41,778 nucleotides of DNA from a virus, in UHGV virus genome UHGV-0176688; one strand, written 5' to 3'. The position numbers were made by a program, and so were the translations under genes. Below, in pieces: positions 32,319-36,740 of this stretch (position 1 is its first letter; every line of letters starts with the position of its first letter). Under the pieces are notes generated by a model. The model was not told the origin of the DNA. It made no database searches and saw only the letters and a list, made by a program, of their open reading frames with translations.

Positions 32319-32648
32319 ATGGGCTATAGCAGACTCGACGACAGGTACATTGAAGACGATATTTTTCGTGCGCTGTTTCACCAGGAAATGATTAAGCGAG
32401 TATCGGAGTATCACTCTGATAATTTCCAGTACACGATAAAGATTGATGAAGTATATCGTTCAGACCTTGCAGCCTACAGGGCGTATGGCAATGCAGATTT
32501 GCGCTGGGTATTCCGGGTGCTGGTGGGCCATGAGTCAGAAATGGAAGAAATGCCCGCCGGGACCACGTTAACTCTTCCTGATGTGGCATGGCTGAGGAAC
32601 AAGATCCGTGATTACGCGAGCGCGGAACCGGAGATAGAAAATGCCTGA
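32319..32648 (+). CDS. Hypothetical protein
   Basis: 109-aa ORF overlapping downstream gene by 8 nt. Confidence 0.5.
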   Translation: MGYSRLDDRYIEDDIFRALFHQEMIKRVSEYHSDNFQYTIKIDEVYRSDLAAYRAYGNADLRWVFRVLVGHESEMEEMPAGTTLTLPDVAWLRNKIRDYASAEPEIENA

Positions 32649-33834
32649 TTTCCTGAAAAACCAGGACGGGCGCTATATCACTGACGGCCTGTCCTCTAAG
32701 GACTTCACGCGTTTATTCGACCTTATCAGGAAAGAACAAACCCGTAAGCGCCGACAAGCTCACCGGACGCTGACGCCAGGCAGACTGAGGAACAAATCTG
32801 CCGAAGATATTCTCAAGTTAGGGAAGAAGAAAGGCGGCACGTTCTTTACACGAGACGATCTGAAAGGCTTCGAAAAGCTACGGAGTAAAACGCGCGAAAA
32901 ATATGACAGCAAGACGGCTGGTATCACATACGCCCAGCTGGTGGCATCCAGCCAGGCAATCGATATTAAGCGTGCAAATAACGCCGTGGATGACGGATCT
33001 GGTATCAAAAGAGCTACACCCGTATCTCTTCGCCACAATGTGATTAATATCCGCGTAGAAGCATCGGATATATCCGTCCACCAGCACCATATCGTCCGGA
33101 TACGCTTTGAAGAATGGGATCAGATGGTCGATGACATCGCAGAAGACGATAAATCAGCCCTGAAAATCACTAAATCATTGTGCGCCGGGCGGGTGTCTTT
33201 CGATTGTGACTGTGGTCGCCATCAATACTGGTATCGCTACATCGCCACTGCGGGTAACTTTGCCCTGGCCCCGCCAAAAGAATACGCCTATCCAAAAGTT
33301 CGCAACCCTAAGCTGCAAGGTGTCGCCTGTAAACACGTGATTCACGCAATGACACGACTACAGTCCGCCAGTTGGCAGATGAGTATTGCTCGTGCGCTAC
33401 AAAAGGCCGCAACGCAAATTGCATTTGGTGACGATCGCCGCCGTACAACCAAACACTTCTCAAAAGAAGACGAGAGGGAGTTTAATCGCAATCGCAACAG
33501 TAAAACAAACGTTGACGCTGCCAAGCGCGAATGGAGGCTCTATCAGAAACGTCAGGCCGCTTTAAGCACAAAACTGGCAAAGGACAACGGCAAAATTGAC
33601 AAGCTACGTGACCAATTGACCAAAGCCAGAAAGTTGTCAGATGCACAGAAAAAACGGGCGGCAGCAAAAGAAGCGGCCTTGCAACGTGAGAAACAGAAAA
33701 ACAAGGAGCTTCAGCAACGCCTTGCCGATCAGTTCGCACTGAAGAAGCAGGCGTTCATTGATGCGCTTGTCATGGCTGGAACACCACCAGCACAAGCTGA
33801 AAAAATGTTCATGGAGTATGTAAAAAAAGCATAA
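32641..33834 (+). CDS. SWIM zinc-finger protein with basic coiled-coil C-terminus
   Basis: FDCDCGRHQYW...GVACKHVIHAM fits CxCxnCxH; Lys/Arg-rich coiled coil at C-terminus. Confidence 0.5.
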   Translation: MPDFLKNQDGRYITDGLSSKDFTRLFDLIRKEQTRKRRQAHRTLTPGRLRNKSAEDILKLGKKKGGTFFTRDDLKGFEKLRSKTREKYDSKTAGITYAQLVASSQAIDIKRANNAVDDGSGIKRATPVSLRHNVINIRVEASDISVHQHHIVRIRFEEWDQMVDDIAEDDKSALKITKSLCAGRVSFDCDCGRHQYWYRYIATAGNFALAPPKEYAYPKVRNPKLQGVACKHVIHAMTRLQSASWQMSIARALQKAATQIAFGDDRRRTTKHFSKEDEREFNRNRNSKTNVDAAKREWRLYQKRQAALSTKLAKDNGKIDKLRDQLTKARKLSDAQKKRAAAKEAALQREKQKNKELQQRLADQFALKKQAFIDALVMAGTPPAQAEKMFMEYVKKA

Positions 33835-33867
33835 ACCACACATAGCCTAGCTGCCTAGGCTAGGCTT

Positions 33868-34596
33868 TCATCTTTTTGAAAAATCAATTTCCGTTTTATC
33901 AAATAATTTTGAAATATCAGCAACCAATTTATTAAAATCATGATCGCCATTATAAAGCGAAGTCTTCTTTATTGCCATTACAAAATCATATAACTTTTCT
34001 GGGGAGTCAATACCAACCCCTCTACTTTTAAAAAGCTCAATGATAACTCCAACATCATCATATAATAACTTTATTGCCGCCATAATCTCTTTTTGCTGCC
34101 TAAGCAATCTCTCAAGTTCATTTTTATTTTCATCCATAATTCTTTTGTTGAATTGTGTATCATTAATACTTTTTATTATTTCAGTCTCTTTTATTTGCAA
34201 CGCCTTTCTTTTATTTTGATCCATGTCGGCATCCAAATACCTTATCTCTGTATATATTTTACTTGTTAGCTTTGATACGCAAAGAGTGACAATCGGAGCT
34301 GCAATTGATGCAATAATTCCAAAAATAAATGGCAAGCAAAAATGATAAAACCAAGGAGACAAAACGCCTTCATAAACTAGAGGAATCTTACCTCCAACAA
34401 ATGTTACAGATAAAGTATATAGGATATCATCCTTTGACTTCATCAATATTAGTATATCTTTCCAATTAATAATTAGAAAAGAAATTAATATATATGCAAA
34501 CACTTTATTAAAAAGCTTGTCTTTTATGGCATCTCCAAAAGATACTTTGATTAGATCATTTTCAGTCAATTTTTCTGTTGATGAATCTGTATTCAT
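33868..34596 (-). CDS. AT-rich membrane protein (2 TM plus coiled coil), candidate abortive-infection/exclusion effector
   Basis: GC far below neighbours; TM segments FAYILISFLIINW and FCLPFIFGIIASIAAPIVTL; hairpin terminator downstream. Confidence 0.45.
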   Translation of the reverse strand: MNTDSSTEKLTENDLIKVSFGDAIKDKLFNKVFAYILISFLIINWKDILILMKSKDDILYTLSVTFVGGKIPLVYEGVLSPWFYHFCLPFIFGIIASIAAPIVTLCVSKLTSKIYTEIRYLDADMDQNKRKALQIKETEIIKSINDTQFNKRIMDENKNELERLLRQQKEIMAAIKLLYDDVGVIIELFKSRGVGIDSPEKLYDFVMAIKKTSLYNGDHDFNKLVADISKLFDKTEIDFSKR

Positions 34597-34658
34597 ATAA
34601 ACTACCGTGATTTCTAATATCTATTTTATGAAAATAGCGGTCATCCAGACCGCCAAAC

Positions 34659-35018
34659 TCAAATACCAACCAAGCTTTCAAGAGGAATGCCAAACCGGGA
34701 ATGTAAACGGCGAATCATAGGTAACGTCAAATTTCGTGTCCCATTTAGCACTTCGTAAACACGATTTGACTTACCAATCGCCGGTTCCAGATCCTTCACG
34801 GTCAGCCCTTGCTGTTCCATACGGAATTTAATGGCCTCAATAGGTGATGGTGGCTCAATTGGGTAATGTTTTTTCTCGTACTCCTCAATGAGAAGACTCA
34901 TAACCTCAAAGAAATCACCTTCCGGAGTATTCATTTCCGGTTCGTTATCGAACATCGGTTCGACCGCACGCAGTGCGGCCTCATAATCTTGTTCTGTACG
35001 GATAGGTTTAATGTTCAT
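34659..35018 (-). CDS. HigA-like XRE-family HTH antitoxin/regulator (second copy, orphan)
   Basis: C-terminal HTH NRVYEVLNGTRNLTLPMIRRLHSRFGIPLESL resembles E. coli HigA architecture. Confidence 0.6.
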   Translation of the reverse strand: MNIKPIRTEQDYEAALRAVEPMFDNEPEMNTPEGDFFEVMSLLIEEYEKKHYPIEPPSPIEAIKFRMEQQGLTVKDLEPAIGKSNRVYEVLNGTRNLTLPMIRRLHSRFGIPLESLVGI

Positions 35019-35074
35019 TAATTACAAAGGAAAGCCCACTTGCTAAGTGGGCTTTTTGTATGTGTTTTACTATA

Positions 35075-35413
35075 TCAGGCTGCTTTTTTATTCAGGTTCC
35101 GCTGAGAAATAAATTTTTCAGCAGTATTGATACGACTTAACTCTTCCTGAACGCGCATATCATTTTCGACTTCCCACAGGTCTACTGCGGTCTGAAGATT
35201 AATCCAAAAATCTACAGAAGTATCGAATGCTTTTGCCAGGCGATATGCCATATCCATCGTTAGCTTACGATTATTATTAACAAGAGCACTTACGGTGTTA
35301 CGATGAACATGAAGTATTTCTGCCAACTCGTTGATCTTCAGCTCTAACGGCTCCAGGTATTCGTACAGCAGGATATCACCTACGGTCGTCGGTTTTCTGG
35401 TTGCCTGTTTCAT
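35075..35413 (-). CDS. higA: HigA antitoxin (HTH_XRE)
   Basis: TVGDILLYEYLEPLELKINELAEILHVHRNTVSALVNNNRKLTMDMAYRLAKAF; downstream of higB. Confidence 0.8.
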   Translation of the reverse strand: MKQATRKPTTVGDILLYEYLEPLELKINELAEILHVHRNTVSALVNNNRKLTMDMAYRLAKAFDTSVDFWINLQTAVDLWEVENDMRVQEELSRINTAEKFISQRNLNKKAA

Positions 35414-35483
35414 TTTTTGCCCTTACTAGCGTGCGTATTAAGTGGACTCTGGTCAGAACCCGGTCCGTAACCGGGTATCTGTT

Positions 35484-35786
35484 TTAGTATTTGTGAGGGT
35501 CGAGATACAAGTCCTCGGCCTTTCCGTTAACCCACTTAAAAATTAACCTATATTGCTTATTCACCCTTACTGATGAATAGCCATTTAGCTTCCCTGACAG
35601 TTCCTCATACCGATTACCTGGTGGTGATCTTAAATCCTTACAGGTAGTTGCGGCATTGATAATGTCCAACTTCCGTGACAATGTCATATGAATATCAGGA
35701 GGTATCTTTCTATGTGGTGTTGAAAATTCAAAAAAATCATCAAGCCACGCATCCCTGAAATCCTTTATGTTAATTTTTTTGGTCAT
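35484..35786 (-). CDS. higB: HigB toxin (RelE/ParE superfamily)
   Basis: LRSPPGNRYEELSGKLNGYSSVRVNKQYRLIFKWVNGKAEDLYLDPH. Confidence 0.8.
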   Translation of the reverse strand: MTKKINIKDFRDAWLDDFFEFSTPHRKIPPDIHMTLSRKLDIINAATTCKDLRSPPGNRYEELSGKLNGYSSVRVNKQYRLIFKWVNGKAEDLYLDPHKY

Positions 35787-35948
35787 TAGTCATTTGATCC
35801 TCCGTGATGATTACCGAATGCCATAACTATATCGCACCGTTGCACTGTGCGCAAGTGCATTTTATGAATTCCCCCCCCTTCATCCAAAATCACAATCTCC
35901 AGAAAATCTTCCTTTCGATACCTGACAGATCGACCTTTGAGGATGCTT

Positions 35949-36740
35949 ATGGGCCGTTTTGACGAATGGTTTGCTGACGATGCAAACCTGGCAAGTAAGG
36001 AGTCAGAACATGACAGCACGCAGAGAGAAACGCCAGCGCCGATTGAAGCGAATGCAGGAGGCGCGCCGGAACATGGCAATACCGGATCGGATTCATTCAG
36101 CATTCTGGAAGAGCAACCCGCCGCCAAAGCTGATAGCCATGATAATTTTGCTGATAGCAACGCTGGCCTTACTCCGGATGCTGGCGAATCAGATATAGCC
36201 ATACTTCCACCTTCCCTGGCTGGCAGAGAACCAACTCCACAGCTAAAAGCACGCTATAACGGGCATAAAGCCTTTAACGACCAAATCCGCGCAGACTGGA
36301 TGCTGATTATTGAATCCAGCCCAGACGCGTTTCAGGCTCTCTTATATCGACCAGATGTTGGCACATATGGGGTAGTCAGCGACGAAACAGGAGAAGAGTC
36401 ATTCACTGAACTGGATAACAACCAACGCGAACTGACTTACCAGGAACCTGAAATCGTTTATGTGCTGGATAACCCGGACGGGCGTGACTCTTTCCATGCG
36501 ATTGACGCAGACGGTGAGCAGGATGGCTTAACCGATGATGTTCTGATTCTGCGTATTGCAGCAAATAACGTCCCCGTCGGATCAATTCTTGAATGGAATG
36601 AAGAGATGGTAAACGGCGTAGCCCGCCGCTGGTGGTACGTGCACCGTATTTTTAGCTACGGCACACAGCATGTTGGTTCGCTTTACTACTGCATACCTGC
36701 CAGGAATTTTGATACGACTCAAAACGGAGTGATCGAATGA
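35949..36740 (+). CDS. Phage morphogenesis operon protein, function unassigned
   Basis: RBS GAGG before ATG 35949; acidic; first of four coupled genes ending in a baseplate spike. Confidence 0.5.
   Translation: MGRFDEWFADDANLASKESEHDSTQRETPAPIEANAGGAPEHGNTGSDSFSILEEQPAAKADSHDNFADSNAGLTPDAGESDIAILPPSLAGREPTPQLKARYNGHKAFNDQIRADWMLIIESSPDAFQALLYRPDVGTYGVVSDETGEESFTELDNNQRELTYQEPEIVYVLDNPDGRDSFHAIDADGEQDGLTDDVLILRIAANNVPVGSILEWNEEMVNGVARRWWYVHRIFSYGTQHVGSLYYCIPARNFDTTQNGVIE

Follow-up and report, generated by a model that had tools for sequence, protein, structure and literature searches.

The described systems closest to the locus studied here are two kinds of toxin–antitoxin (TA) module in which the toxin gene comes first, and one defence system of three genes. 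The first module is the HigBA of Proteus vulgaris Rts1, or 'plasmid maintenance killer'. The second is the HigB-HigA (YgjN-YgjM) of Escherichia coli K-12, a PF09907 toxin with a COG5499-type antitoxin, for which the structure of the complex is solved (PDB 5IFG/5YCL). The defence system, PD-lambda-2, has a HigB-like component A, a HigA-peptidase fusion B and a third gene C that is P4 antitoxin-like (Vassallo et al. 2022, PMC9519451). Here we describe positions 33868–35786 of the virus genome UHGV-0176688 (41,778 nucleotides (nt), referred to as the window in its full length), where four open reading frames (ORFs) on the minus strand encode a HigB toxin, a HigA antitoxin, a second HigA-like protein with a helix–turn–helix (HTH) domain (HTH119) and a membrane protein of 242 aa (Mem). 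The window matches Escherichia phage D6, a plasmid prophage related to P1, at 99.4% identity, and the four ORFs are the counterparts of D6 orf70–73, whose annotations are RelE-family toxin, HigA (for two genes) and hypothetical protein. A preliminary description of the locus had proposed HTH119 and Mem as a possible regulator-effector pair acting in abortive infection. Our analyses argue that the locus is probably made up of three independent units instead: an addiction module, the scar of an antitoxin and an autonomous membrane gene possibly engaged in exclusion or defence.

The higB and higA genes of the window are like the Rts1-type module in their toxin-first order, their domain scores, their location on a plasmid replicon and a palindrome over a plausible promoter. 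They differ from it in being embedded in a phage tail operon of opposite orientation, and they are known here from sequence. HTH119, on the other hand, is like the K-12 antitoxin, aligning to residues 21–129 of that HigA, and the pairs to which its relatives belong in sister elements share with K-12 HigBA the toxin-first order and the tight coupling. Unlike in K-12, the toxin and promoter of such a pair are gone from the window, and HTH119 has 119 aa as against 138 aa for the K-12 HigA. The likeness to PD-lambda-2 consists of the resemblance of HTH119 to the first 119 positions of B, that of the sister-element toxin to A, and the layout of three genes with a non-TA gene in the third place. However, HTH119 ends at residue 119 (the profile of B has 402 positions) and has no peptidase domain, the window HigB has no PADLOC match, and Mem matches neither C nor any other PADLOC model. 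PD-lambda-2 was considered as the identity of the locus for its strong PADLOC match, and was rejected with the peptidase domain and the A and C components missing.

HTH119 resembles the antitoxin of a different toxin family

The gene for HTH119 (34659–35018, minus strand; 119 aa, HTH_3 domain) encodes an orphan antitoxin of K-12 type and is very probably the remnant of a displaced PF09907 higB-higA module. Its residues 6–112 matched the HigA chain of the solved E. coli K-12 HigBA complex (PDB 5IFG_B/5YCL_A, E 2e-8). In PADLOC it matched PD-Lambda-2_B (E 5.7e-43) over profile positions 1–119 of 402 only, which correspond to the HigA-like domain alone. The 119-aa form of HigA belongs to a family of at least 7991 clusters. 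The second HigA-like gene is therefore of a different type from the first, as the preliminary description had held.

In the corresponding slots of sister D6-like elements (loci L004–L006, L009, L014–L017, L020 and L030), the 119-aa gene follows that of a 100-aa PF09907 HigB after 3–6 nt. The antitoxins found behind this HigB in L004–L006 are 97% identical to the window HTH119. The sister-locus toxin matched the HigB chain of the same solved complex (E 3e-8), and also PD-Lambda-2_A over its full length (E 2.6e-42). The pair of PF09907 higB and 119-aa higA also stands alone in lambdoid prophages, in ~151 E. coli chromosomes, and on small plasmids. In the window, the genes upstream of HTH119 are PF05015 higB and higA; the cognate PF09907 toxin is not there, which makes HTH119 an orphan. 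Because it pairs with a PF09907 HigB in sister elements, lambdoid prophages and small plasmids, HTH119 is by these comparisons an ordinary antitoxin with a known class of partner.

In the lambdoid prophages, the PF09907 higB and 119-aa higA pair, at ~80% nucleotide identity (L053:3504–4168 and L055:3004–3668), adjoins the immunity region (dicB ... cI-like / cro / ydaT).

Replacement of the old toxin gene up to the HTH119 start codon

In an alignment of the slot variants (alignment A3), all variants were identical from gene 7, on the right flank, to the promoter region of the cassette. Beyond this region the sequences part into a PF05015 higBA block and a PF09907 higB block without relation to one another, and they become homologous again a few bases before the ATG of HTH119 (35018), where the breakpoint of the replacement lies. 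Directly upstream of this ATG lies a stable hairpin that closes the incoming higBA module (35031–35055, minus strand; 11-bp stem; -17.9 kcal/mol, z -5.9). The ancestral GGAG Shine-Dalgarno sequence, located inside the 3′ end of the old higB, is lost in the window. We observed no Shine-Dalgarno sequence upstream of the window HTH119, where the sequence before the start codon is CCTTTGTAATTAATG, and no promoter of its own. The TCCCA-N-TGGGA palindromes of the ancestral higBA promoter (L004), which are putative operators, had no match in the whole window.

On its other side, HTH119 is followed by a hairpin that ends the old HigBA module (34635–34655, minus strand; 8-bp stem then ATTTTCAT; -16.6 kcal/mol, z -4.9). 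L008 and L009, which have no Mem, keep this hairpin with the end of gene 25 immediately beyond it (alignment A9), and we therefore take it both as the end of the old TA module and as its boundary with the Mem module.

We consider it highly likely that the architecture and history of the locus are those of a displaced module, an antitoxin remnant and a separate Mem. The incoming higBA would have replaced the old promoter and toxin gene right up to the start codon of HTH119. It is established in TA biology that loss of an antitoxin is lethal when the toxin persists. Replacement of the toxin alone would thus be the viable route, and the antitoxin was presumably spared because its loss would have killed the cell. 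The remnant is now without promoter or Shine-Dalgarno sequence and is decaying in sister lineages. We infer that the orphan HigA is largely silent, possibly with some residual anti-addiction value.

Orphan copies of HTH119 decay and assort independently of Mem

A sequence search of E. coli records matched the region in 102 plasmids and in no chromosome, and an even sample of 60 of these 102 records was used for a census of the slot. In 29 of the 60, PF05015 higBA is followed by a 65-codon stump of HTH119 without the HTH and by an intact Mem. PF05015 higBA with an intact HTH119 and no Mem was found in six records, PF09907 higB with HTH119 and no Mem in four, and PF09907 higB with both HTH119 and Mem in five; other classes, including L010, account for 16. 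By this sample, about half of the 102 E. coli D6-like plasmids carry the HTH119 gene truncated to 65 codons. In addition, the gene is frameshifted in L013 and has an internal stop in L029. The ratio of non-synonymous to synonymous differences per site (pN/pS) was 0.10 among orphans and 0.01 among the copies paired with PF09907 higB; being summed over pairwise Nei-Gojobori comparisons that are not phylogenetically independent, this tenfold ratio is indicative and not a formal test.

HTH119 and Mem are not obligate partners, as Mem was seen without an intact HTH119 and HTH119 without Mem, the latter for example in L008 and L009, where HTH119 is intact. Mem and the TA modules reassort, since each of two Mem alleles, at 99% and 91% identity, was seen with either TA type upstream. 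The commonest Mem allele has differing upstream sequence, with a recombination breakpoint inside the HTH119 gene (alignment A3). The sequence data suggest that the orphan HTH119 is decaying under relaxed selection and is not tied to Mem.

A second phage-plasmid lineage with a HigA remnant upstream of Mem

Distant homologs of Mem (22–30% identity) are present in a second lineage of phage-plasmids from Citrobacter, Salmonella, Pseudocitrobacter and E. coli. The contigs of this lineage, of ~90–100 kb, also carry genes for a Gp23-type capsid protein and an SLT-domain protein. Here, too, a TA on the same strand immediately precedes Mem, and its type varies between the elements. Upstream of Mem, L038 has a PF09907 HigB with a 138-aa K-12-like HigA, L035 and its relatives have TacA with a GNAT toxin, a strong terminator and then a 68-aa ORF, and L039 has a ParE-family toxin with an unrelated HTH. 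What is left in the 68-aa ORF (L035:4710–4916) is the N-terminal part of a HigA of K-12 type, with 54% identity to that of L038 (E 2e-27); the ORF was also found in L036, L037, L046, L048, L050 and L051. A canonical terminator (stem then T6) and ~380 nt lie between tacT and Mem in L035. In L016, a more distant relative of D6, a K-12-like HigBA is followed by Mem.

Judged from these gene orders, the second lineage appears to repeat the history of the window, in which a TA was displaced and left part of its HigA upstream of Mem. The simplest reading is a single ancestral HigB-HigA-Mem cassette, in which TAs were displaced repeatedly in situ and the old antitoxin was left as a scar. Two lineages of phage-plasmids would then show the same pattern: an incoming TA takes the place of the old toxin gene but leaves the old antitoxin gene, which then decays. 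For annotation this means that an 'extra HigA' beside a TA can be a scar of TA turnover and not a regulator. Such an 'antitoxin scar' may serve as a simple signature for the reconstruction of TA replacement on plasmids.

In L051, an IS605-family TnpB (OrfB_IS605 / Cas12f-like; L051:315–1436) lies just upstream of the tacAT-Mem cassette.

Mem is a hypervariable protein with a predicted inner-membrane location

Mem (33868–34596, minus strand; 242 aa) is a full-length member of phrog_8191 (E 1.8e-114, residues 1–242 against profile positions 1–242 of 242), which is annotated 'unknown function'. Several features listed in the preliminary description were borne out. The gap between HTH119 and Mem is exactly 62 nt (34597–34658). 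The compositional jump is strong, with a GC content of 0.28–0.31 across Mem as against 0.47 for the whole window, and a GC content at third codon positions of 0.23 as against 0.41–0.52 in the neighbouring genes. The protein had been called a two-transmembrane (two-TM) coiled-coil protein, and hydropathy indeed gave two hydrophobic segments, at residues 32–50 and ~82–108. An AlphaFold model built from 5 sequences was poor (predicted local distance difference test, pLDDT, 62), and the mean pLDDT rose to 75.7 with an alignment of 23 sequences. The latter model has TM1, a short helix at 58–67, a long continuous helix at 81–191 and two small C-terminal helices. Mem likely has an N-in/C-in topology, with an N-terminal TM hairpin and a cytoplasmic coiled coil.

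A word-indexed search with Mem returned 9 clusters, all from the D6 slot, and a full profile search returned 56 representative clusters of ~200–270 aa at E<1e-3. They have in common the N-terminal motif IKDKLxNxxFxYIxxSFxxxNWQxILILxKSKxDI...LPxxxGxxASxxxPxxT, and with this motif conserved across 56 clusters Mem is not a chance ORF. The D6 slot holds at least 9 Mem allele clusters (<85% identity), which are 33–60% identical to the window allele, and all alleles of the slot have a GC content of 0.28–0.35. Around these differing alleles, identity is at least 95% in HTH119 and the tail flanks. Strong divergence of alleles between near-identical flanks is typical of conflict-driven diversification.

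Mem homologs were also found in other elements. One stands alone on an Enterobacter chromosome, one lies between the ogr and gene D homologs of a P2-like prophage (L042:1311–2027), and one adjoins umuC in another prophage. In L040 (944–4651), genes for a C5 DNA methyltransferase and a 603-aa AAA_21/HEC-04-like ATPase immediately precede that of a 218-aa homolog, a defence-like neighbourhood. A genome scan with Mem gave one locus, a metagenome scan only one 1.4-kb contig with no gene context, and one viral scan found nothing. With its divergent alleles in one slot and its occurrence in other accessory slots, the membrane gene is foreign, exchangeable cargo, as had been proposed; it is a separately exchangeable, hypervariable inner-membrane gene, independent of the orphan HigA. 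The homolog of the P2-like prophage has an N-terminal (NS)n repeat, NSNSNSNSNSNSNSN.

Mem had no match in Pfam, NCBIfam or PADLOC. A PDB profile search returned only coiled-coil proteins (E>=0.012), and Foldseek with the Mem model returned nothing significant, the best E being 2.6 in the PDB and 1.6 among viral structures. When 23 members of the family were scanned, scattered matches to LmuB, JetC and ZapB coiled coils and a lone match to TraS (E 0.03) were obtained, which we regarded as compositional noise. A channel was also considered, as the top Foldseek matches in the PDB were the pores of 2-TM cation channels (NaK, MthK, Kv), with a probability of at most 0.12 and not significant. It was not adopted: in the D6-like alleles a short helix and then TFVGG (residues 58–72 together) lie between the two TM segments, but distant members do not conserve this motif. 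A promoter scan gave 9 sites as against 8.4 expected from shuffled controls, and no promoter is claimed for Mem.

T4 Imm, HK97 gp15, P22 SieA and SieB and lambda RexB are single-gene membrane proteins for superinfection exclusion or abortive infection. Mem resembles these proteins in kind only, as a small inner-membrane protein from an accessory slot of a temperate element, placed against late genes and hypervariable among close relatives. Unlike them, it has a long cytoplasmic helix after the TM hairpin, and no sequence or fold similarity to them was detected. Mem is probably made in the lysogen, and it may work at the inner membrane to counter incoming phages or rival elements, by superinfection exclusion or abortive infection. 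Its genomic context, orientation, hypervariability and presence/absence polymorphism are consistent with such an exclusion or defence function, which we propose tentatively, at somewhat less than even likelihood. The TA genes of the locus are of known families already annotated in D6, and Mem is without a characterised relative. As a fast-diversifying family in the accessory slots of several temperate elements, Mem proteins are reasonable candidates for superinfection exclusion or defence. Current defence-finding tools detect almost nothing in D6-like elements (bioRxiv 10.1101/2025.09.12.675607).

Alternative explanations for the arrangement of the locus

Several observations weigh against the division of the locus into three independent units. 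The window and several sister elements still have an intact HTH119, and the orphan pN/pS of 0.10 is well below 1. The minus-strand hairpins have weak U-tracts, which makes it possible that transcripts from the higBA promoter run on into HTH119 and Mem. In both phage-plasmid lineages, every Mem found has some TA directly before it on the same strand, and this constant order could reflect functional coupling and not shared descent. The exclusion or defence role proposed for Mem has no homology or structural match behind it in PADLOC, Pfam or the PDB.

The last of these points bears on a role of Mem outside defence, for instance as a lysis accessory, a membrane anchor or another trait of lysogenic conversion, or on Mem being a silenced passenger without current function. 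Very AT-rich xenogeneic genes are often silenced by enteric bacteria, and Mem is very AT-rich. It is also polymorphic for presence and absence, it has truncated alleles in L020 and L033, and the searches done found it similar to none of the characterised families, those of defence and exclusion included. Set against these features are the conservation of the N-terminal motif and architecture across the 56 representative clusters, the recurrence of Mem in accessory slots of four kinds of temperate element and the strong divergence of its alleles (at least 9) between near-identical flanks. We regard a role outside defence as less likely than not.

The intactness of HTH119 bears on another possibility, which is compatible with the three-unit interpretation. 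Orphan antitoxins can act in anti-addiction, as chromosomal ccdA homologs protect against plasmid ccd, and the orphan HigA could be kept as an anti-addiction or immunity gene against the PF09907 HigB of rival D6-like phage-plasmids and lambdoid prophages. Like the ccdA homologs, HTH119 is an antitoxin without a toxin whose cognate toxin family circulates in the host species, related PF09907 higBA being common there (~151 E. coli chromosomes and rival D6-like plasmids), and the intact copies in the window and several sister elements are 97% identical to the paired ones. Unlike the ccdA homologs, it is visibly decaying and has no visible expression signals: the window copy lies behind a hairpin without promoter or Shine-Dalgarno sequence, and truncation, internal stop, frameshift and the tenfold higher pN/pS of orphans indicate relaxed selection. 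Retention for anti-addiction is therefore unlikely in our judgement.

The constant position of Mem behind a TA could also mean that the genes form a three-gene system, in which Mem is the effector or sensor of whichever TA lies upstream, acting for example after read-through on derepression during infection. This would parallel PD-lambda-2, which requires its third gene for defence (PMC9519451), and the displaced HigB and HTH119 match PD-Lambda-2_A and the N-terminal part of PD-Lambda-2_B, respectively, with the E values given above. Mem is just downstream of a TA on the same strand in both lineages, behind five TA types in all (PF05015 HigBA, PF09907 HigBA, K-12-like HigBA, TacAT and ParE with an HTH), and the hairpins between the modules are imperfect terminators. 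However, five unrelated and interchangeable TAs argue against a specific protein-protein partnership, the same slot holds TA modules without Mem, and Mem occurs without any TA in four other contexts. In L035, moreover, the canonical terminator and ~380 nt separate tacT from Mem. The adjacency can be explained by one ancestral cassette and in-situ replacement of toxins, which is documented by the HigA remnants. Coupling of this kind is the chief alternative to the three-unit interpretation but seems quite unlikely. If Mem, as a hypervariable membrane effector, were instead the conserved output gene of a TA-coupled defence cassette, with HigB-HigA-Mem as the ancestral unit and a TA part similar to A and B of PD-lambda-2, any type II TA upstream could serve as an infection-sensing switch whose derepression drives Mem, and the swapping of five unrelated TAs upstream of Mem in two lineages would be accounted for; we consider this, too, improbable.

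Finally, a role of HTH119 as the dedicated repressor or antitoxin of Mem in a two-gene abortive-infection or exclusion pair is very improbable: the two genes do adjoin on the same strand at 62 nt, their adjacency is ancestral and present in many D6-like elements, and the second lineage has a K-12-type HigA upstream of Mem, but about half of the E. coli D6-like plasmids have an intact Mem behind a 65-codon stump that has lost the HTH, Mem-free copies of HTH119 occur in the same slot as well as in lambdoid prophages and small plasmids, orphan copies gather stops, frameshifts and non-synonymous changes, a stable hairpin separates the two genes, and the palindrome type of the ancestral promoter, putatively the operator, is absent from the window. 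The preliminary description, which proposed this pair, had itself named pairing of the HigA-like gene with higB only as evidence against it, and the cognate partner of HTH119 is the PF09907 HigB of sister elements. An addiction module, an antitoxin scar and an autonomous Mem, assorting independently, thus remain the interpretation that we favour.

The gene-25/gene-7 slot of D6-like phage-plasmids

The cassette lies between two tail genes on the plus strand. The left one is a homolog of P1 gene 25 (32641–33834; D6 orf74, 'similar to P1 gene 25'; 57% identical to P1 gp25), and the right one a homolog of P1 gene 7 (35949–36740; D6 orf69). In P1 the slot is empty, and genes 25 and 7 adjoin at 3 nt in one late operon (4218/4222 in L007). 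Since the flanking genes are only 3 nt apart in P1, the cassette is an accessory ('moron') island, inserted on the opposite strand into the late tail operon of a D6-like plasmid prophage. Between the convergent Mem and gene-25 homolog is a terminator-like bidirectional hairpin (33843–33866), called on both strands, of which the RNA structure is weak (z -1.4).

In D6-like phage-plasmids, the position between tail genes 25 and 7 is a combinatorial hotspot for accessory genes. The only gene annotated there in L010, a D6-like plasmid, is neither a TA gene nor Mem but encodes a 179-aa 'stationary phase growth adaptation protein' (L010:1973–2512), for which no Pfam or PADLOC match was found. An additional ORF of 159 aa, likewise with no match in Pfam or PADLOC, lies between Mem and gene 25 in L013 (5817–6296), the same element that has a frameshifted HTH119.

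The higBA module

The first two genes of the cassette are a canonical pair, as originally described. HigB (35484–35786, minus strand; 100 aa) is a RelE-fold toxin of the Proteus or 'plasmid killer' type that scored 120.5 bits with PF05015 (cutoff 27; E 4.4e-35). It also matched phrog_3066, 'toxin of TA system', and PDB 6F8S_B (E 2.8e-14), and it is 100% identical to D6 orf70. HigA (35075–35413, minus strand; 112 aa), the cognate HTH antitoxin of the PF05015 HigB, scored 102.5 bits with TIGR02607 antidote_HigA (cutoff 47.7) and matched HTH_3 and phrog_1381. The genes are arranged toxin-first on one strand, 70 nt apart. A toxin domain above the curated threshold is thus followed by an adjacent downstream HigA equivalog, as in HigBA modules of the PF05015/TIGR02607 type.

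Upstream of higB, a putative promoter (35826–35859, minus strand) has the -35 element TTGCGC, which matches the consensus at only 3 of 6 positions, a 17-nt spacer and the -10 element TATAGT. It is overlapped by the palindrome TGCACTTGCGCACAGTGCA, a candidate HigA operator that was also called as a hairpin at 35841–35859. The D6 higBA is treated as an addiction system in the literature (PMC6799933); in the literature we found it described only in this way, and nothing on orf72 or orf73. With a promoter and palindrome apparently its own, higBA is a type II TA, presumably active, whose likeliest job is post-segregational killing, by which the plasmid prophage would be retained, and we infer that it acts as the addiction module of that prophage.

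Two features of the region upstream of higB were also observed. At 35769–35801, a strong GGAGG Shine-Dalgarno sequence serves an out-of-frame upstream ORF of 7 codons (ATGACTAATGACCAAAAAAATTAA), whose ATG is 6 nt before that of higB and which may couple or modulate toxin translation. Eight G in a row (35871–35878) lie just upstream of the putative higBA promoter; the same position in the sister locus L003 reads GGAGGGGG, indicating that the length of the tract varies.

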